A stretch of DNA of 51,112 bases, taken from an archaeon (GTDB lineage: Archaea > Iainarchaeota > Iainarchaeia > Iainarchaeales > JAAZKV01). Location of the stretch: contig JBBSVX010000016.1 of the NCBI GenBank assembly GCA_038046585.1, positions 1-51,112 of the forward strand, read 5' to 3'. Below are positions 6,514-49,649 of this stretch, piece by piece. Both the position numbers and the translations under genes were made by a program. Under the pieces are notes generated by a model. The model had not been told where the DNA came from and made no database searches. It saw only the letters and a list, made by a program, of their open reading frames with translations. The first letter of the stretch is position 1; each line of letters opens with the position of its first letter.

Positions 6514-8928
6514 TTATTTCTTAAAAAATATGTCAAGAAGCTTTTTTCGCTTCGCTTTTTCAGCTTTCTCTTCCATGGCTTCCTTTACAACTAGCCCAGC
6601 GGTACCAACTATTCTTTCCACTCTCATTTTTGGCTTACCTGAGCGTCTCAATGTCTTTACTTCTTTTTTCATCTGCGAAACTTGTCCTCTAATGTCCCCT
6701 ATCTCTTTCTCAACCTGCGAAGATTGCTTCTCAAAGTCTTCCGAGAGCATAAGTCCAGACTTGTGATGTTTCTTAATATCAGTAAGTCCTTTTTCAAGCG
6801 CCCTTAATTTGGCTGTGGATTCTTCCAGATTTACTACGCTTGCTTTTCGCGCAAGGCGGTGATTTGAAATTGAATCTATCTCGCTATCGTACTTCTTCTT
6901 CATAAAGAAATATTCAGCGTCAGTAATTTTTTTCTTTGAAAGAGCCTTGTCAAGATTGCCTAAAACCGAGTACAATTTGTCCGCTCTCGCATAATCGCGA
7001 GGAGAGACATCAGGCGTTCTCATTCTTAAGCCTATTATTATCAGAATCAAAAGAACTGCGCAAAGCGAAATAACAATTATTGCAAAGAAGGGAGAGAAAT
7101 TGTCAATTCTCTTATAAGTGATGTCAACAACCGGTTCGTTTGAAACAAAATCTGTCATTTCTGTGAAAGCCAAGTATTCATCAACATCGGCCTTAACATT
7201 CTCCAAGTTCTCGCTAAGAACCGCTAAGTCATAACCGGTTGTAAGATTTGCGCTCCTTTCAAGCTGTTTATTTAGCGACTCTTCATACTTTGAATTTTCG
7301 AGGAAAAAGTGGGCATGATCAAGATATAATGCAGCCCAAAGCGAAGTCAAACTGCCGCTATCCCCTATTCTTGATTCAATGAAAGCAGCAAGCTTATTTG
7401 CATCCATGTTCGAGCGCCTTTTTTCAGCAAAAATAAACGATTCTGCGAAATAGGCATCATAGTACGCCGCAAAAAAGAAATTGTTGTCAAATGATATTTG
7501 GGCAGAATTGAATCTTCTTGTGGCTTCGGTTAGCACGTCCTGAGTTGTGTTTGAGTCCTCTGCAGAGGTCATTACAAGTTTTTCAACATCAGAAAGTTTC
7601 TTCTCGACTTTCATAATGAATTCCGGAGAATAATAAGTGTTCTTTTTTACTTGTGCTTTCTTGGCTTCCCCAAAGAAGTCTTTTGCGACTCCAACCCAAG
7701 CGCTCGCCGAGACATAATCATAAACCTTGTCAAACATCGCTGACTGTATCTCTTCAGTAGTGGCTTCTGCGGGCAAGTCAAGCGATTTTCTTGCGCTAGC
7801 GATTGCATTCTCAGCATAAGCTATTCTTTGCTGAGCTCCTATCATCCATTCAACCTTATCAACTGGAATAAAACTCATTTCGCCTTTGAGTTCTTTTATA
7901 GTGCTTTCAAGCTCTGAGAGTTTCAGTGCAAGAATGCTCGAATCAGGCGACATTAACGAAGGGGTCTTTGCTATTTCCCCTATCGAATCGGCTAATACCT
8001 GGGCGTTGAAAGTGTAATTCGCGGAGGAATACAGATAATTCTGGTCGAGGAAAATGTTTGCAAGTTCAATATTTCTTTCTGCTGCGCCAAGTCTTGGATA
8101 GAACGAGCTTCTTAGAGGATCTTCTAAGGTAGTCACTTCAAGCTCTTTTTTGGCGTCCTCTACCGAACTTCTTGCCTCGTCAATGTAACTTTTTGAAAAT
8201 TCTCTCATCGGAGTCAAAATAGGTTTGTATTGAATTGCAGGGGGGACAAATCCGTTCTGGACATTGGTTACATCCACAACGATGCTGTTTATGTCAGAGT
8301 AAGCATATTTTAGAACATCATCTATTGTGTCTACTTCAACAATCTTCATCCCGAGTTCCTCAGGCCCATATTTTAGTAGATTAACTGATGTTGCTTTTCC
8401 ATTGTCGTTGTATACTTGGTTCGCTTCGCCTCTTGGTATCATTAATAGTTTTATTCCAACTTCTGAAGCAACTTTTGCTTTTGCAAAAACTCCTCCAACA
8501 ACTCCAACTGATCCGTCTGAGTTTATTGTTCCTGTTATTCCAACTTCTTTTGGAAGAGGCCTTTCTTCAAGAACGGAGTACATCAATAACGTCATCGCTG
8601 CTCCTGCGCTAGGACCGTCAACTTCGGATGCATTTGCCTGAATATCAAAAATAAAATTCTTCTTGGAAATATCCACTCCGGTTTTTTCTTGGGCTATATC
8701 AAGCGCGATATTCCCCGTTGTTTGAGTATCTTTTCCGACAAGAGAACTTGAAGTAATGAAAGCAACTTTTCCAGTTCCTGCCATTGTTGTAAGAAACAAA
8801 TCTGCTGCCATTCCGACTTCATCTTCAGTGACAGCGAATACTCTTATTTCGCCCGATTGAAGGATTGCAAAAGCGTTGCATGAAATAAAAATAAGTGCGA
8901 TAAAAAGTGCGATTATTCTTTTGTCCAT
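6514..8928 (-). CDS. extracytoplasmic Lon-like (S16) serine protease with signal peptide, helical ectodomain, one TM segment and a cytoplasmic coiled-coil tail
   Basis: I chose the start at MDKRIIALFIALIFISCNAFA (signal-like). The S16 core is EVDGPSAGAAMTLL...ITGTINSDGSVGVVGGVFAKAKVASEVGIKLLMIP, giving a Ser/Lys dyad context. There is no AAA+ module. TM segment FFAIIVISLCAVLLILIIIGL, and a tail with the SHOCT-like ITDAEYFFMKKKYDSEI. Confidence 0.8.
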   Translation of the reverse strand: MDKRIIALFIALIFISCNAFAILQSGEIRVFAVTEDEVGMAADLFLTTMAGTGKVAFITSSSLVGKDTQTTGNIALDIAQEKTGVDISKKNFIFDIQANASEVDGPSAGAAMTLLMYSVLEERPLPKEVGITGTINSDGSVGVVGGVFAKAKVASEVGIKLLMIPRGEANQVYNDNGKATSVNLLKYGPEELGMKIVEVDTIDDVLKYAYSDINSIVVDVTNVQNGFVPPAIQYKPILTPMREFSKSYIDEARSSVEDAKKELEVTTLEDPLRSSFYPRLGAAERNIELANIFLDQNYLYSSANYTFNAQVLADSIGEIAKTPSLMSPDSSILALKLSELESTIKELKGEMSFIPVDKVEWMIGAQQRIAYAENAIASARKSLDLPAEATTEEIQSAMFDKVYDYVSASAWVGVAKDFFGEAKKAQVKKNTYYSPEFIMKVEKKLSDVEKLVMTSAEDSNTTQDVLTEATRRFNSAQISFDNNFFFAAYYDAYFAESFIFAEKRRSNMDANKLAAFIESRIGDSGSLTSLWAALYLDHAHFFLENSKYEESLNKQLERSANLTTGYDLAVLSENLENVKADVDEYLAFTEMTDFVSNEPVVDITYKRIDNFSPFFAIIVISLCAVLLILIIIGLRMRTPDVSPRDYARADKLYSVLGNLDKALSKKKITDAEYFFMKKKYDSEIDSISNHRLARKASVVNLEESTAKLRALEKGLTDIKKHHKSGLMLSEDFEKQSSQVEKEIGDIRGQVSQMKKEVKTLRRSGKPKMRVERIVGTAGLVVKEAMEEKAEKAKRKKLLDIFFKK

Positions 8929-9074
8929 AAAAACAAATCCTTTTATTTGTGCATTCCAATTCAACATTCAAGTTACTATATACGAAGTGCTTGTGGTTTA
9001 AAAGGCTTTTTGGGGGAGCAATTTTCCAGCCAACCAACATAGACCATTTGAACAAGCATTAAATCGCAGCTCAC

Positions 9075-12000
9075 TCAAGGGCAGTCGCTGTCCCATGAAT
9101 CTAACCGACCATCATAATCATTGTCAACCCCGTCATCACAGTCAAACTCAATTGCATTTCCATCGCCGTCAAGATCTCCAACCCCTATAGATATTGTATG
9201 ATCCGTAGCTATTGGGAAACTCATTTTAAGCGAAAAGTCGCCCGAGCCGTTATTTAGATAAAGATCATTTGTTTGATCCAGATTTCCAGCCACATAGTCA
9301 AGATCACCATCACCATCAAAATCACCTATTCCAAGCGCCCATGTTTGCTTTGTTTCAACAGAACTATCATACAACGTGAAATTTGCCGAACCATCATTTA
9401 GATAAACATTATTTGTTGCGCTACTTCTACCGGCAATAAAGTCAAGGTCGCCGTCAAAATCCAGGTCGCCGACAGCCAAAGCATAAGTGTAATTATTTGC
9501 AACAGAATCTTCCCATGAACCAACTGAAAAGTTTGCAGAACCATTATTTAAATAAACTCGGTTTTTTCCGTTTGTTATGGAAGAAAGATAATCTATATCT
9601 CCATCGCCATCAAAATCACCCACTGCTGTTCGTGTGCCGTTTGATTCGGTAGCAACCCATGATCCAAGAGAAAAATTAGCCGAGCCGTCGTTGATATACA
9701 CTCTATCTAACCCAGAATTTCCTGCGATATAGTCAAGATCACCATCACCATCAAAATCCCCAACACCTATGCTGCCGGTTGAATCCGATTCAACTGAACT
9801 TGCGTAAAGACTAATATACCCGCTTCCATCATTCAAATATACTCTATTAGGACCCTGGCTATTTGCAGTAATAAAGTCTAGATCACCATCACCATCAAAA
9901 TCGCCCATACCCACTCCATCAGTATAATCCAACAGGGTAGATGTAGTGTGCTGGGAAAAACTTCCTGCACCATTATTTTTGTAAACATATTCCCTCTGGG
10001 GTCCGCCGCTACCCAGACCTTTAGTCACAACAACAGCATCGAGGTCGCCGTCATTATCCAAATCTCCTATTCCTATGCCATAACTATAAACCGCACCGAA
10101 ACTTTGGTAAAGCGTAAAATCAGCTGAACCGCCATTCAAATAAACCCTGTCAGGCTGGTCAATGCTTGTTCCCGCGATAAAATCAAGATCTGGGTCAGGT
10201 AGGCAGTCGCCCAAATTTTTATTCTCCCACATAAGCTTGGGAAAGTCAAAACCATCACATACATTACTCCAATTTGAATCAGTTCCAAAATCACCTATAG
10301 ACCAGGGCATTCCAGAAACATATACCGAATGAGACATATTATAAAAATTTGAATCAAGGTACTCTGTAATACACCCCGGAACTGAGGTTGAATTTACACT
10401 ATCACTAAAATTTGTGTCATTCCAATACAGATCCGAAACCGCCCCCCCTGAATAATACCCAAAACCATCTTTGTATGAACTTGAGGTGTAAACTGATCCT
10501 GAAGAAAATAAATTGTTCATTGCTCCACTGTTTATCTCACCAGCAAATGTTCCCACACGCCCTGATGATCCCCCATAAACAAAATTGCGTGCAGCATAGG
10601 ATTTCACTATTTCACCCCACCCTGAATCAAATTCACCCACAAATCCTCCGCTACCTGAGCCGCTCGCATAAACATTGTTGTTTGAAGAATAACAATTCTC
10701 TATGCTCGTCCAATTAAGCCCTATAAATCCTCCCACATTATCAGTACCACGAATATTATTATCAGAGGCAAATGAGTCAGATATCCTAACCATGCTTCCA
10801 GCAAAACCGAAAAATCCCCCAGTCCCATTGCTCCCCGTACCGGCGCCAAATACAGTATTATTTTTCGAATATGAGTTTGAAACGCTTCCATTATTTGCGC
10901 CGCCAAGCCCGCCAATGTTTCCATTCGTCCAATTACCCCAAATATTATTATCAGTAGATGCAAAACGCGTTATTGTAGCGTCGCCTGACCCAAATGCCCC
11001 CCCACAAGTGCTACCACAAATAATTTTATTTCTGCGAGAGTTTATGTCAGATACGATCACACCGTATACACTTAATGTACCAAATACTCCCCCAGAAACA
11101 CTAGCTGCAATTATATTATTGTCTTCTGAACGAATTCTATTGACCTGTTTGTTTGTGGATTGCATATAATATACGATCCCCGCAGCGGCACCTGTAGGGG
11201 AACTTATATTACTCCTAACAACATAAACATCATTGATCGTACCAACATGATAACTGGCAAGTGCGGCGGAATATGTTTTTGAATTTATATTCGCATCAAT
11301 AAATCCCACATTTTTTAAAACAGATGAACTTTTTGTTGAAGAAAACAAGCTCCCCCCATACTCTGCAGGTCTATTAATGTAAAGCCCATTTATTTCAAAC
11401 CCAGCTCCGTCAAAAGTTCCTGAAAAAGAGTTATTATCAAAAAAACCCGAACAAAAATTGTCATCTCCACAATAACCTATCGGCTCAAATCCAGAGCCCG
11501 TATTGAATGGAGTGATATCACAATTAATATCGTTTATCAAAACATAATTCGCATCAAGATATAGATTCATGTTTTGCATCTGATTGCAATCAGAGATTTG
11601 GTAAGGATTCGCCAAAGAAGCGTTACCTCCTGCAAATTCAATCGGTGGCAATGCAGTAACAAAGTAATTCACATCTATTGCAGAGTTTATGTCTGTTTCT
11701 TCATTGTGGCTCGAACTGTTATCAATGCAATTTACATCCCAAATATATACTCCCGAGCTTGGAAGAGTTCGGTGGAAGCCAGTAAATGGAGCGCTCGAAT
11801 TTGTAACGACTGACAAACCATTAAGGATAAGTTCACATGATTGTATTCCTGATACATCACTCACCGTATAATTGAAATCAACATTTCCATCAGTGTCAAC
11901 CGTGTGATTCGCTGGCGAAGTTAAAGTGATAACAGGCGGAGTGGTGTCAACAACAGTCGTCGCATAATTCAAATCCCTTGGTCCGCCCCAACCAATATTG

Positions 12001-12770
12001 TTGTTTCCGTCCATGCATCTAACTTTCCATTGATGAATCCCTGAAGAAAGCGAAGAAACTCTGAAAGCCAAGTTAACCCCTTCCAAAATCGGAGCATACA
12101 CATTATCAGTAATAGAATCGTCAATGTAGAGTTTGCACCACTCAATAGTACTGTTAACATCGGATACAGTAAAATTCAAATCAACAGGAAGAGAAACAAA
12201 AGCATAGCCGCTCGCTGGAGAAGTAAGGGTGACAACAGGGGGAACATGTTCCTTTCCGCTTGAAAGAACAACCAAATCCCAATCGTCAGTATCAACATTC
12301 AAAACACACTCGACAAGTAGCGTGATCTCCCAATTCTTCTCAAGAGTACTAGAAGAAGTCGCATAAACTTTAACTGTTAAACTCTTTTTTTGACCCACTG
12401 CGGTGCAAATACACGTCGCATCAAGCCCGTCCAAATAAAACAACTTATCATCGCCCGACAAAAGCTGCTCTTCGTAAGGCACAAGAGTGGAACAAGTCTC
12501 AATACCAGTAATCTCAAGACCATCACCCGTATTATTCCTCAAGCCAAAAAAAGCGCCTCCATCCGCATCGGCAACAGCCTCTACAAATCCTATCGGACCA
12601 GACATCGCACTAATACTGCCCGCAGCATTACCAATCTGCTCGGAAGGCGCGCCCAAAAAAGAACTGGCAAAAAATACTACAATCAAACCAATAACTACTA
12701 CAACTGCAACAATAACCAAATACTCAATCGTACCCTGCGCTACAGGTCTCTCAAATGACGAAATTTGCAT
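9075..12770 (-). CDS. giant surface protein with class III (pilin-like) signal peptide, 2 Ig-like domains, GLUG-type repeats, a 7x FG-GAP propeller and a Cys/Asp-rich metal-binding-like C-terminus
   Basis: The N-terminus MQISSFERPVAQGTIEYLVIVAVVVVIGLIV matches the archaeal class III signal pattern (QG.IEYL plus a hydrophobic helix). There are tandem ~95-aa domains starting PPVVTLTSPA / PPVITLTSPA, and G-rich repeats (VGGFIGL..., GGFVGEF...). Seven GDxDGDGDxD...NRVYLNDGSANF repeats follow. The protein ends CDDGVDNDYDGRLDSWDSDCP. ATG at 12770, with the TATA-like ATTATATAT about 35 nt upstream. Confidence 0.85.
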   Translation of the reverse strand: MQISSFERPVAQGTIEYLVIVAVVVVIGLIVVFFASSFLGAPSEQIGNAAGSISAMSGPIGFVEAVADADGGAFFGLRNNTGDGLEITGIETCSTLVPYEEQLLSGDDKLFYLDGLDATCICTAVGQKKSLTVKVYATSSSTLEKNWEITLLVECVLNVDTDDWDLVVLSSGKEHVPPVVTLTSPASGYAFVSLPVDLNFTVSDVNSTIEWCKLYIDDSITDNVYAPILEGVNLAFRVSSLSSGIHQWKVRCMDGNNNIGWGGPRDLNYATTVVDTTPPVITLTSPANHTVDTDGNVDFNYTVSDVSGIQSCELILNGLSVVTNSSAPFTGFHRTLPSSGVYIWDVNCIDNSSSHNEETDINSAIDVNYFVTALPPIEFAGGNASLANPYQISDCNQMQNMNLYLDANYVLINDINCDITPFNTGSGFEPIGYCGDDNFCSGFFDNNSFSGTFDGAGFEINGLYINRPAEYGGSLFSSTKSSSVLKNVGFIDANINSKTYSAALASYHVGTINDVYVVRSNISSPTGAAAGIVYYMQSTNKQVNRIRSEDNNIIAASVSGGVFGTLSVYGVIVSDINSRRNKIICGSTCGGAFGSGDATITRFASTDNNIWGNWTNGNIGGLGGANNGSVSNSYSKNNTVFGAGTGSNGTGGFFGFAGSMVRISDSFASDNNIRGTDNVGGFIGLNWTSIENCYSSNNNVYASGSGSGGFVGEFDSGWGEIVKSYAARNFVYGGSSGRVGTFAGEINSGAMNNLFSSGSVYTSSSYKDGFGYYSGGAVSDLYWNDTNFSDSVNSTSVPGCITEYLDSNFYNMSHSVYVSGMPWSIGDFGTDSNWSNVCDGFDFPKLMWENKNLGDCLPDPDLDFIAGTSIDQPDRVYLNGGSADFTLYQSFGAVYSYGIGIGDLDNDGDLDAVVVTKGLGSGGPQREYVYKNNGAGSFSQHTTSTLLDYTDGVGMGDFDGDGDLDFITANSQGPNRVYLNDGSGYISLYASSVESDSTGSIGVGDFDGDGDLDYIAGNSGLDRVYINDGSANFSLGSWVATESNGTRTAVGDFDGDGDIDYLSSITNGKNRVYLNNGSANFSVGSWEDSVANNYTYALAVGDLDFDGDLDFIAGRSSATNNVYLNDGSANFTLYDSSVETKQTWALGIGDFDGDGDLDYVAGNLDQTNDLYLNNGSGDFSLKMSFPIATDHTISIGVGDLDGDGNAIEFDCDDGVDNDYDGRLDSWDSDCP
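9150..10200 (-). repeat. intragenic tandem coding repeat (7 FG-GAP/VCBS-type blades)
   Basis: The GD(F/L)DGDGD-encoding motif recurs at about 9161, 9298, 9441, 9591, 9732, 9876 and 10038, a spacing of 137-162 bp. Three copies share an identical 23-nt core, agatcaccatcaccatcaaaatc. Confidence 0.85.
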
Positions 12771-12853
12771 GAACAAACTACGCTTCTAAGATATATAATA
12801 ATAGCGATAAAAAGAGCCGGTTCTTACGAGTTGATTAAGAGATTAAAATAGAA

Positions 12854-46964: not shown

Positions 46965-49649
46965 ATGTATAATTTCAGAGTTTTAGGAGTAATCTTAGTT
47001 TTAATGGCTTTTTTTGCAACGAGCGCTTTTGCTGCCTCATCAATAATTGATTTTAACATTAATAATGATGCGACCTATATCTCAAGCACTTCAGCAACAC
47101 TTTACCCAGCAATAACAGCTGATGCTAACTGTACTATGTGCTTTTCAGAAAACTCTGACTCAAACGTGTGTGCAACATACATCACTTGCGCAAGCACTAG
47201 CCAAGTATTTACCCTTTCTTCAACAGCAGGAACAAAAACCGTCTATCTTTTTGTAAAAGACAATGCAATTCTGACAACTTCAGACAGCGATACAATAACT
47301 CTTGACAACAACTTTCCAACCTACTCAATAAGCGGAGTAACAGATGGAAACTATTACAACACTACTTCATTTACAATAACAATCACCCCCGTAGACAACT
47401 CGGGTATTGCTTCAAGCGCGTACACTCTTAACGGATCAACAGTAACAAGCCCCATAAGCACAGGAACTCTTACTGATGGAAATCATGTCGTTACAGTTGA
47501 CCTAAATGATGTTGCCGGCAATAGAACTCTCGGCGCATTTTGGTTTGTTGTAGACACAAACACTCCAACTTTCTCAACTCTAACTTCGAGTTATTCATCT
47601 TCATACACTAATGATGAAGAGCCTGATTTTAACGCAACTGCAAGCGACATTAATTGGGGAATGACTAGCGGAATAATTGCTTTCTCCTGCGCTAGCAGCG
47701 GAACATATTACACTGCAACTTACTCGCAGATATTTAGCACATTCAACATAACTTCAACAGGATACGACTGCAACACAGCCGACGGAAACAAAATCGTTTA
47801 TGTTAAAGTTAGAGACAGGGCAGGAAACTGGAGTTCTGTAAAGAACGTCAATGTTCTTTATGATAACAATTCCCCTTCAGTACCTAGCGGATTAACTGCA
47901 ACTGCAGGAGACAGACAAGTTGCTCTAGCTTGGACCGCTCCAAGCGCAGATAATTTATCAGGAAACAAAGAGTACAAAGTTTACAAAGACGGATCTGTTT
48001 ATTCTACAACAACAAGCACTTCCCTAACAGTAACCGGACTCACAAACGGAACTTCTTACACATTCAAGGTAGCTACTGTAGATAATGCAGGAAACGAAGG
48101 CTCAGCTACAAGCAACGTTTCGGCCACTCCTAGCGGAGCGACTACTTCAGTATCAGTAAAGAAAGCAGGATCAATCGCATACTATGTAAAAACAGGCGAT
48201 TCACTAGCAATCGAATGTTCCTATTCAGCGACTGCTGATGCTGCAAGAATAAAGTATCGATACCGTTCGCCTGACGTGGACTCGCAAACACTTAGAGGAC
48301 CAACTAATGCCGTGACAAGCCTTTCAGAAAACCACACAGTTATTTCAGGAAATTACGAAAGAATAGAGTTTTGGTGCGAAGGAACAACAACCGAAACAAT
48401 CACTTCAGGAACAGTAACTGTGACTATTGACAATGTAGCCCCTACATTGACTTGGAATGATACCAACACGAAATTTGTCGGAAAGAAAAGAATCGGCGCA
48501 ATAGTAACTGAACCATTCCTAGACAAAGTGGAAATATTATTCAAAGGAACATACATGCAAACAACAAAGGACACCAACAATGGGAACCTTTACTACTATG
48601 ATTTGAACACCATGCTTTACGAGAACGGAAGTTACGCACTAAAGGCGATAGCTTACGATAAAGCAGGAAACCAGAAATCAATCGACATGAATATCACAAT
48701 AGAAAATATTCTTTCAATATCGCAAAAAGCCACAAAAGCAATTGCTGATGCGAAAGCGAAAAAACAGGAAGTTGTAGACATAATGAGCATCTACTCCGAA
48801 AAAGGATTAATATTTGCTGACGAGCTTACAACAAAAAAAGATAACGCAGATAAGTTGCTTTCAGAAGCTGAAAGTACTGTGGCAACTAATGCGACACTTG
48901 CATATGAGAAAGCAAGCCAAGCAAAAAGCCTTTATGATGAGATAAAAATCGTTGCAACAATAACTCCGTTCCCTGATGGAACAAAAACATATGATTACAA
49001 CTCGGACAATTTGCTAAATCAGTTGGCTGCAATTGGACTTACTCCTGCAACCGCAAATGCAGCAAAGGCGTTGATTGAGTCTTCAGGAATAGAGAGGAAG
49101 ATAAGTGTTTTCGAAGTTGGGTCTGGAAAATACCAGGCGAACATCGAGATAACTTTCACTAACGACACAAATTCTGACGAAATAAGAATACTTGAAGTAA
49201 TACCAAAAGAACTGGCTGCTTCGGCATCGCAGATATACTCCGCAACAGCATTCACTGTTGTCCAAGAAGATCCTGTGATTGAGTTTGTCGTACCTGTAGA
49301 AAAAGGAGCAAAAGGCACTGTAACTTATGGTGTTGGAGAAATAACAAAAGAACAAGCAGATATGATAGTGCAGGGCAATTTGATAGCCAAATTTGCCGCA
49401 CCCCCGGTAATATTACCTGAGGGCACAACATCAGATTCGGCGCTTTCACCAATACTTGGCGGAGCAATAGCGGCAGGAATGTTGCTTTTCGTTATGGCAA
49501 TGTTCGCACTTGCCGCAGTTCTGATAGTTTTCTTCGCAAAGATAAATCTATCAGGCAAAGGCGGATTTGGAGAAAATAAAACAATATTTGAGCAATTATT
49601 TTCGCAGGGACCAGCGCCTGAAAAGAAAACCAAATGGGCAAAGAAGTGA
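46965..49649 (+). CDS. secreted, C-terminally membrane-anchored surface protein with Ig-like and fibronectin-III domains (S-layer/cell-surface candidate)
   Basis: Signal peptide MYNFRVLGVILVLMAFFATSAFA; FN3 domain PSVPSGLTATAGDRQVALAWTAPSADNLSGNKEYKVYKDG...YTFKVATVDNAGNEG; C-terminal TM segment AAGMLLFVMAMFALAAVLIVFF plus a basic tail. It carries many N-x-S/T sequons. Confidence 0.8.
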   Translation: MYNFRVLGVILVLMAFFATSAFAASSIIDFNINNDATYISSTSATLYPAITADANCTMCFSENSDSNVCATYITCASTSQVFTLSSTAGTKTVYLFVKDNAILTTSDSDTITLDNNFPTYSISGVTDGNYYNTTSFTITITPVDNSGIASSAYTLNGSTVTSPISTGTLTDGNHVVTVDLNDVAGNRTLGAFWFVVDTNTPTFSTLTSSYSSSYTNDEEPDFNATASDINWGMTSGIIAFSCASSGTYYTATYSQIFSTFNITSTGYDCNTADGNKIVYVKVRDRAGNWSSVKNVNVLYDNNSPSVPSGLTATAGDRQVALAWTAPSADNLSGNKEYKVYKDGSVYSTTTSTSLTVTGLTNGTSYTFKVATVDNAGNEGSATSNVSATPSGATTSVSVKKAGSIAYYVKTGDSLAIECSYSATADAARIKYRYRSPDVDSQTLRGPTNAVTSLSENHTVISGNYERIEFWCEGTTTETITSGTVTVTIDNVAPTLTWNDTNTKFVGKKRIGAIVTEPFLDKVEILFKGTYMQTTKDTNNGNLYYYDLNTMLYENGSYALKAIAYDKAGNQKSIDMNITIENILSISQKATKAIADAKAKKQEVVDIMSIYSEKGLIFADELTTKKDNADKLLSEAESTVATNATLAYEKASQAKSLYDEIKIVATITPFPDGTKTYDYNSDNLLNQLAAIGLTPATANAAKALIESSGIERKISVFEVGSGKYQANIEITFTNDTNSDEIRILEVIPKELAASASQIYSATAFTVVQEDPVIEFVVPVEKGAKGTVTYGVGEITKEQADMIVQGNLIAKFAAPPVILPEGTTSDSALSPILGGAIAAGMLLFVMAMFALAAVLIVFFAKINLSGKGGFGENKTIFEQLFSQGPAPEKKTKWAKK

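Follow-up and report, generated by a model that had tools for sequence, protein, structure and literature searches.

In the modular pilins of bacteria, a pilin carrier bears a grafted effector module, for which a place at the filament tip has been proposed (Raynaud et al. 2021, 10.1101/2021.01.27.428410). The EppA substrates of Methanococcus maripaludis have leaders of 5–13 amino acids (aa) that end in Gly and are followed by Gln at +1 and Glu at +5, and Flp pilins additionally have Tyr at +6 (PMC3875500). A type IV filament (TFF) arrangement with one ATPase and a split platform, 'System 1', has been reported in methanogens and DPANN (10.64898/2026.04.22.720090). We analysed contig JBBSVX010000016.1 (GenBank assembly GCA_038046585.1), a stretch of archaeal DNA of 51,112 nucleotides (hereafter, the window), in which one gene encodes a 1231-aa protein with a pilin-type N-terminus. 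Large solute-binding proteins of archaea were already known to carry class III signals, and 'large adhesin-like proteins' had been noted in archaeal TFF loci. To our knowledge, little has been established on how DPANN archaea recognize other cells or surfaces and attach to them, and their surface proteins are mostly annotated as hypothetical. Since the FtsZ protein encoded in the window is 76–85% identical to the FtsZ of Candidatus Iainarchaeum / Diapherotrites metagenome-assembled genomes (MAGs), the host, which comes from groundwater, is a DPANN archaeon of the Iainarchaeota, in agreement with the DPANN-type host supposed in the original prediction, a reading of the letters of the window made before this analysis.

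We consider that the 1231-aa protein is probably an archaeal modular pilin of the Epd/Flp-like class. Residues 1 to ~160 form a pilin module, with a short basic leader, an Ala/Gly-Gln junction, the motif QGTIEY, an alpha-1 helix, a linker and a beta-sandwich. The remainder, here called the passenger, comprises two immunoglobulin-like (Ig) domains, then a GLUG module, then a Ca-binding FG-GAP propeller of seven blades, and finally an Asp-rich tail clamped by Cys residues.

Five described systems resemble parts of this protein: 1) The PilB/PilC modular pilins of Streptococcus sanguinis are likewise built from a pilin module, a linker and one or more non-pilin effectors, occur in many architectures on a constant carrier, and have been proposed to act in adhesion at the tip. 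However, they carry the IPR012902 N-methylation motif and an alpha/beta roll, whereas the present protein, known from sequence, has an Epd/Flp-type signal (Ala or Gly, then Gln...Glu-Tyr) and a beta-sandwich and, with 1231 aa and four passenger modules, lies above the 860-aa extreme of the Raynaud survey; it would be an archaeal analogue of the modular pilins, not a member of the bacterial IPR012902 set. 2) The Epd pili and EppA substrates of M. maripaludis (DUF361, TFF 'System 1') share the short leader, Gln at +1, Glu at +5, and one ATPase with two platform genes. In the Iainarchaeota family described below, by contrast, position −1 is mostly Ala and not Gly, Tyr at +6 is invariant as in bacterial Flp, and a beta-sandwich is present, whereas the major Epd pilin has no globular domain; moreover, no EppA homologue was located for the family in the sampled DNA. 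3) Archaeal solute-binding proteins with class III signals also place non-pilin passengers of several hundred aa on a prepilin-type N-terminus and are handled by TFF systems, but they are of the ABC type and lack a pilin globular domain, whereas a full pilin domain and adhesin-type repeats are present here. 4) The PilY1/PilC tip adhesins of bacterial type IVa pili are large, pilus-associated adhesins whose N-terminal modules vary and whose C-terminal part is a Ca-binding beta-propeller; PilY1, however, is not a pilin, docks via minor pilins and has a propeller of a different family, and the 1231-aa protein gave no PilY1-type Pfam match. 5) FG-GAP/VCBS propellers, such as the N-terminal domain of integrin alpha and the propeller of CRTAC1 (PDB 9etn), are likewise made of seven FG-GAP repeats with one DxDxDG Ca-loop in each, but here the propeller has been added at the C-terminus of a pilin-GLUG protein.

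The N-terminal pilin module and its relatives in pilus operons

By its residues, the N-terminus of the 1231-aa protein carries a clean class III signature of the Epd/Flp type, placed ahead of the hydrophobic segment, where class III signals are cut. Among 189 non-identical N-termini of the family, position −1 is Ala (86%) or Gly (14%), and Gln at +1, Glu at +5, Tyr at +6 and Leu at +7 were each found in 100% (the first three being Gln12, Glu16 and Tyr17 here); the leader has a median length of 9 aa, with Lys or Arg between −5 and −1 in 80%. The Pfam model Class_IIIsignal (PF04021) was matched at E ≤1e-3 by 17 of 86 family members. No other class III-like N-terminus was found among the open reading frames (ORFs) of the window.

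Small pilins with the same N-terminal motif were found in ATPase/platform operons of related Iainarchaeota. At loci L005 and L041, genes for a T2SSE ATPase (E 2e-32 and 3e-33) and for T2SSF platform proteins, of which two were confirmed in L005 and one was scanned in L041, adjoin a gene for a 154-aa pilin starting with KGQGTIEYLVII; the operon pilin L005:431-895 passes the Class_IIIsignal threshold (26.7 vs 23.7 bits). When the scan was started from the ATPase, a pilin of 151–164 aa with [AG]QGTIEYLVIIAIVVV was located 2–3 kb downstream in all 5 metagenome loci with enough flank, and a large protein carrying the module lay within 10 kb in 2 of these 5. Three large Glug-bearing carriers lie 4–10 kb from the L005 pilus operon, and an ATPase of a second type is encoded directly beside carriers in L061 and L067. 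The layout of the relatives' operons, with one ATPase and two platform genes, matches TFF 'System 1'.

Alignment of the operon pilin L005:431-895 with a profile of the N-terminal modules (hhalign) gave 98.6% probability and E 1.4e-15 over 95 columns, reaching into the beta-domain, and the mature N-termini of the large carriers and of the small operon pilin are nearly identical over ~20 residues. At the level of sequence comparison, the module is thus homologous to the ~155-aa pilins of operons with one ATPase and two platform genes in related Iainarchaeota. Beside the pilus ATPase of L005 we also noted a small ATPase-like gene (L005:5847-6527), with sub-threshold similarity to KaiC (E 5e-4, 20.0 vs 26.6 bits), which may encode a regulator of the pilus system.

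A PDB sequence search with the module gave no match. An AlphaFold2 (AF2) model of residues 1–188, built on a 26-sequence alignment, had a predicted local distance difference test score (pLDDT) of 84, with a helix at residues 14–38, disorder at residues 40–52 and a seven-strand sandwich at residues 60–156 with pLDDT >90. The top Foldseek matches in the PDB, with E values ranging from 2e-5 to 3e-3, were archaeal type IV filament subunits, namely those of the pilus of Pyrobaculum arsenaticum (6w8u, E 2.3e-5), of P. calidifontis (8fk7) and of the Aap filament of Sulfolobus (8q30), and a Halobacterium archaellin (9eq7). The predicted fold therefore fits archaeal type IV pilins best. Together with the homology to the operon pilins, this bears out the pilin-like, class III pattern that the original prediction had seen in the N-terminus, and supports a genuine pilin-type module.

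Passengers carried on the module

A search with the full-length protein returned the protein itself and partial matches sharing AQGTIEYLVI and the next ~150 residues, with differing C-termini; when the N-terminal 174 residues served as the query, short proteins made of the module alone were found as well. Stand-alone modules of 145–170 aa are P0038, P0039 and L005:431-895. With a profile of nine N-terminal modules, 1,516 clusters (at 50% identity) at E ≤1e-3, of which 311 at E ≤1e-30, were found among 1.84 billion representative proteins; the family thus comprises at least 1,516 such clusters. Most of the top 150 profile matches are 450–900 aa long. Scanning of GTDB genomes yielded 76 loci, several per genome, nearly all of them in MAGs labelled archaeon, Ca. 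Iainarchaeum or Ca. Forterrea. One locus labelled Planctomycetales (L032) looks mis-binned, because the 452-aa carrier that it matches is also the one matched by the archaeal locus L033. Where members bear a name, it is 'hypothetical protein', and no published description of the family or its signature was found in the literature on Iainarchaeota/Diapherotrites pilins, archaeal GLUG pilins and DPANN FG-GAP proteins.

A census of the GTDB-scan loci together with the window's own gene gave 107 carriers, 87 of them complete. The complete carriers have a median length of 569 aa; 67 are at least 400 aa long and only 16 are shorter than 300 aa. On these lengths, a large protein on the N-terminal module is the norm in this lineage, contrary to the original prediction, which had taken such an N-terminus to belong normally to pilins of 100–200 aa. 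The 1231-aa protein is among the largest members found.

In a passenger scan of 86 members, we detected Glug (41 members), Peptidase_M26_N (21), Big_7 (7), Laminin_G_3 (5) and SBBP (5), as well as NHL, Reg_prop, Beta_helix, NosD, SGL, Vgb_lyase-type and similar families, altogether 20 different Pfam families on the same pilin module. The family thus holds its pilin module constant and exchanges its passengers. FG-GAP repeats were present in only two of the 86, namely the 1231-aa protein and P0104 (730 aa), in which they directly follow the pilin module. Family members align to the 1231-aa protein from residue ~272 or 380 and stop at residues 850–857, and the family consensus spans a complete GLUG-type module closing with ...YP.L.W. 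Since the alignments and the consensus end after GLUG, the canonical member consists of the pilin module, with or without Ig domains, followed by GLUG, the propeller and tail being appended here. Recombination or gene conversion at the constant 5' end was considered as a driver of the module shuffling but found no support, since codon identity in the motif is 0.48 within genomes and 0.42 between genomes. With synonymous identity within genomes barely above that between genomes, it is the protein sequence of the motif that is conserved.

The Ig / GLUG / FG-GAP architecture of the original prediction was borne out. Pfam Big_7 was matched in two stretches (E 1.6e-10), and the 20 cysteines of the protein include the pairs 212/252 and 312/348, within the Ig domains, and 1211/1230. 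The match to Pfam Glug (PF07581) was marginal (21.0 vs 20.5 bits, two stretches at E ≤1), and in phmmer searches the region aligns with the Glug-rich proteins P0009, P0010 and P0011; the strongly Glug-positive proteins to which it aligns include P0009 (E 1e-32) and the L005 carriers (up to E 5e-28). No sequence relative of the GLUG region was found in the PDB; with NCBIfam, residues 497–630 weakly matched the polygalacturonase PglB (E 0.11). Pfam FG-GAP_3 was matched in seven stretches (E 1.7e-41, 141 bits vs a cutoff of 26.9), and seven DxDxDG loops are located at residues 903, 957, 1005, 1052, 1102, 1150 and 1199, spaced by 47–54 residues. By sequence, the propeller region also matches that of CRTAC1 (9etn, E 5.4e-7). 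A velcro closure, in which the N-terminal strand DPDLDFIAG would fill in the last blade, is probable; both this closure and the blade count are derived from sequence periodicity, as the AF2 model of the propeller was not confident. The model of residues 172–1231 had a mean pLDDT of 55, with the propeller unmodelled and confident regions only in the second Ig domain and in parts of GLUG; its Foldseek matches, tandem Fn3/Ig arrays such as those of CbhA and the adhesin SiiE, were used solely to confirm the Ig array.

The C-terminal motif is present at residues 1211–1230, but the resemblance to MopE-type modules that had been suggested for it did not hold, the last 39 residues giving no Pfam match at E ≤10, MopE (PF11617) included. 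The one, weak PDB relative of the tail is the Ca-binding Cys-rich motif of Teneurin-4 (7plp, E 0.16), and the tail is a putative Ca-binding clasp. The 23-nt DNA core reported earlier is indeed identical in three blades. Recent intragenic duplication, one of the two origins suggested for the core, is rejected at the level of whole blades: over all blade pairs, codons are shared at 131 identical residues, compared with 128 expected from codon bias, so the blades are old. A local excess of codon sharing occurs only in blades 2, 3 and 6 and is confined to the 8-codon core. As three identical cores would arise by codon bias alone with a probability roughly estimated at 1e-4, a short conversion tract or a constraint at the nucleotide level is possible.

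In several members of the family we also observed an extended leader with a degenerate second cleavage motif (e.g. MRRAQGTIEEPFLLKQKTLGKKTIAQGTIEYLVV), located ~20 residues upstream of the true motif; these are L002:5833-8025, L031:6507-8630, L034:9938-12031, L050:9914-, L055:91-1737, L063:4395-6332, L076:4515- and members in L039 and L053. A 5' duplication or a mis-called start codon could account for this motif, which might also be a regulatory or decoy element. In addition, a second subfamily of class III-like N-termini, (A/G)QGAIEYLLIIGAAILVVA, is present in the same genomes on proteins of 104–688 aa (L006:8968-9888, L007:5455-5823, L025:4826-5140, L026:2666-4732, L052:4941-5882 and L063:1193-2530), which suggests two pilin sets or two filament types in these genomes.

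Mode of display

If the 1231-aa protein is a modular pilin, a prepilin peptidase would cleave it after Ala11, and the type IV pilus machinery would pull the helix out of the membrane into a filament made mostly of the small operon pilin. As the passenger is bulky, incorporation would most likely be as a minor or tip subunit, or on top of a short pseudopilus. The Ig domains would serve as a stalk, and GLUG and the propeller would bind a ligand, probably a glycan or protein and probably in a Ca-dependent manner, on another cell or surface. The N-terminal helix would be the sole attachment, since the protein has no C-terminal anchor. With 27 N-x-S/T sequons compared with ~19 expected, and with AglB and a glycosylation cluster encoded 10 kb away, the protein is probably N-glycosylated. 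That it serves for host attachment in this DPANN archaeon is a reasonable guess.

Several observations weigh against a modular pilin. The 1231-aa protein scores below the Class_IIIsignal cutoff (14.6 vs 23.7 bits, residues 11–33), and an NCBIfam scan of it gave no useful match. The Foldseek TM-scores were modest (0.30–0.46), because the orientation of the helix to the domain differs, and in the AF2 model a disordered linker of ~20 residues separates the helix from the beta-domain. No gene for a pilus ATPase, a platform protein or a prepilin peptidase was found in the window or in ~10 kb beyond each of its ends (~70 kb of the genome), and no peptidase of the A24/FlaK/EppA type was detected, by regular expressions and Pfam, among 34 multi-transmembrane neighbours in ~1 Mb of related loci, where transporters, PAP2, CDP-OH transferases and one Rce1-like protein were found. 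Each related genome of ~1 Mb encodes at least 6–8 carriers, mostly large ones, a number that is difficult to square with all of them being tip subunits, and most large carriers are not adjacent to pilus operons. Finally, it is from the domain types alone that an adhesive role is proposed for the passenger.

The number, size and genomic dispersal of the paralogues make it plausible, though on the whole we think it unlikely, that the pilin-type signal serves for processing and anchoring only, as in the Sulfolobus bindosome, with the helix staying in the membrane or forming part of a very short pseudopilus; many paralogues together would then form a surface coat or a nutrient-capture layer and not the decoration of a long pilus. 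The long flexible linker after the helix would suit such a tether. However, near-identity with the operon pilin over ~20 residues is what is expected of subunits that pack in the same filament core, and the beta-sandwich pilin domain, which a mere anchor would not need, is kept in all members.

It is more doubtful still that the passenger is mainly enzymatic or nutrient-scavenging, e.g. binding or degrading polysaccharides by means of a beta-helix and the propeller, and not an adhesin between cells, whether displayed by a filament or tethered. The weak similarity to PglB points in this direction, as does the presence of Beta_helix, NosD, Laminin_G_3, SGL and Vgb_lyase-type domains among the passengers of the family. 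But no catalytic family was significant in Pfam or NCBIfam, the GLUG region has no sequence relative in the PDB, and GLUG, Big_7 and FG-GAP are typical of adhesins and surface proteins.

Least probable is an N-terminus that is an uncleaved signal-anchor of a type II membrane protein, or a Sec signal, unrelated to type IV pili and with QGTIEY as a lineage-specific motif of another role: the sub-threshold Class_IIIsignal score, the lack of a peptidase in the sampled DNA and the lack of pilus genes near the gene in this genome would fit it, but the position and invariance of the motif speak against it, as the invariant residues precede the hydrophobic segment exactly at the positions of the Epd/Flp signature, and so do the same N-terminus on small pilins within ATPase/platform operons at 7 independent loci, a fold that fits archaeal pilins best, and an 894-aa surface protein of the window that uses a normal Sec signal and a C-terminal transmembrane (TM) anchor.

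The gene, its surroundings and its significance

The gene is present in three assemblies from the same sampling site, whose records in the European Nucleotide Archive (ENA) name 'Hain_H43' samples, the only difference being A384G; this repeated recovery with a single aa difference indicates that it is neither a chimera nor an assembly artefact. In one assembly (ERZ1292640), a 16.9-kb contig breaks off within the adhesin gene and keeps the C-terminal 731 aa (L081:1-2196). A TTG codon at 12776, two codons 5' of the ATG, would give a protein of 1233 instead of 1231 aa, but the position of a TATA-like box favours the ATG at 12770. This box suggests that the gene has its own promoter and a leaderless or short-leader mRNA; as it lies near the ATG, and as a hairpin is situated after the preceding ribosomal P1 gene, the gene may form a transcription unit of its own with little or no leader. 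The coordinates of the features are collected in Table 1.

Table 1. Features of the gene for the 1231-aa protein, in positions of the window
Feature	Position	Strand	Basis
Complete coding sequence	9075..12770	(-)	1231 aa from ATG; stop codon 9075-9077
A/T-rich TATA-like box ATTATATAT (putative)	12791..12800	(-)	~25 nt 5' of ATG; read by eye
Leader peptide, residues 1-11 (MQISSFERPVA; Arg8, Ala11)	12738..12770	(-)	Predicted prepilin-peptidase cut after Ala11
Mature N-terminus, residues 12-38, QGTIEYLVI and hydrophobic alpha-1 helix	12657..12737	(-)	Family conservation, AF2 helix 14-38, Class_IIIsignal 14.6 bits
Ser/Gly/Ala-rich flexible linker, residues 39-58	12597..12656	(-)	AF2 pLDDT <50 at residues 40-52
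Pilin globular domain, residues 59-157, seven-strand beta-sandwich, conserved Cys120/Cys122/Cys155	12300..12596	(-)	AF2 pLDDT >90, Foldseek, family alignments
Ig-like domain 1 (Big_7 type), residues ~176-270, Cys212/Cys252	11961..12245	(-)	Pfam Big_7, AF2 strands, Foldseek
Ig-like domain 2 (Big_7 type), residues ~274-371, Cys312/Cys348	11658..11951	(-)	Best Big_7 stretch 279-330; AF2 pLDDT ~80-93
GLUG-type module, residues ~372-857, from N-cap NPYQISDCNQMQ...INDINC to closing FDFPKLMWENK	10200..11657	(-)	Pfam, phmmer, family consensus
Seven-blade FG-GAP Ca-binding beta-propeller, residues 858-1206	9153..10199	(-)	Pfam, DxDxDG loops, 9etn match
Cys-bounded Asp-rich C-terminal motif, residues 1207-1231, C1211...C1230	9078..9152	(-)	CDDGVDNDYDGRLDSWDSDC at residues 1211-1230
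23-nt identical DNA core AGATCACCATCACCATCAAAATC	9301-9323, 9736-9758, 9880-9902	(-)	Encodes DFDGDGDL in blades 6, 3, 2

The window also encodes the ribosomal proteins L44e, P0, P1 and L1, Spt5, TBP, FtsZ, SMC, AglB/STT3 and a long glycosylation cluster. The last forms an island of ~25 kb (21327-45819) at a distance of 10 kb from the sequon-rich adhesin gene. Besides AglB/STT3, the island encodes several glycosyltransferases, sugar-nucleotide enzymes, methyltransferases and a flippase-like protein. The 894-aa surface protein (46965-49649, +) combines Big_13/fn3 domains with a classic Sec signal and a TM anchor at the C-terminus, and is an S-layer-like candidate; in view of its signal and anchor, the genome appears to use two distinct types of targeting. 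Directly downstream of the adhesin gene and on the same strand, an 817-aa protein (6514-8967, -) is encoded, which has a hydrophobic segment at the N-terminus, a protease domain of the Lon_C (S16) type, a TM segment predicted around residue 620 and a long charged C-terminal region; this gene order is kept in all assemblies. About 4 kb past the right end of the window, an ORF of more than 2,203 aa (L078:14915-21170+) has an N-terminal TM anchor and no Pfam match, and lies outside the pilin-module family.

The pattern at the level of the family is of more interest than the single gene, although the finding would matter less if the proteins were merely membrane-tethered. Ala or Gly followed by QGTIEYLVI is a sharp signature that marks, in one DPANN phylum, a repertoire of surface proteins probably displayed on pili, and is tied to an identifiable operon with an ATPase and two platform genes, and the idea of modular pilins would thereby be extended from bacteria to archaea. 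The family yields candidates for adhesion assays, for tests of peptidase specificity, and for targeted metaproteomics or cryo-electron tomography in groundwater enrichments. As a tentative possibility, the Iainarchaeota may have made the Epd/Flp-type pilin module a general handle for surface display, by which a single small machinery would present a large, fast-diversifying repertoire of adhesins, lectins and enzymes; this may be the main way in which such reduced cells build an interactive surface and choose their partners. The 1231-aa protein would then be one of the most elaborate versions, in which an integrin-like propeller has been added to the GLUG core.

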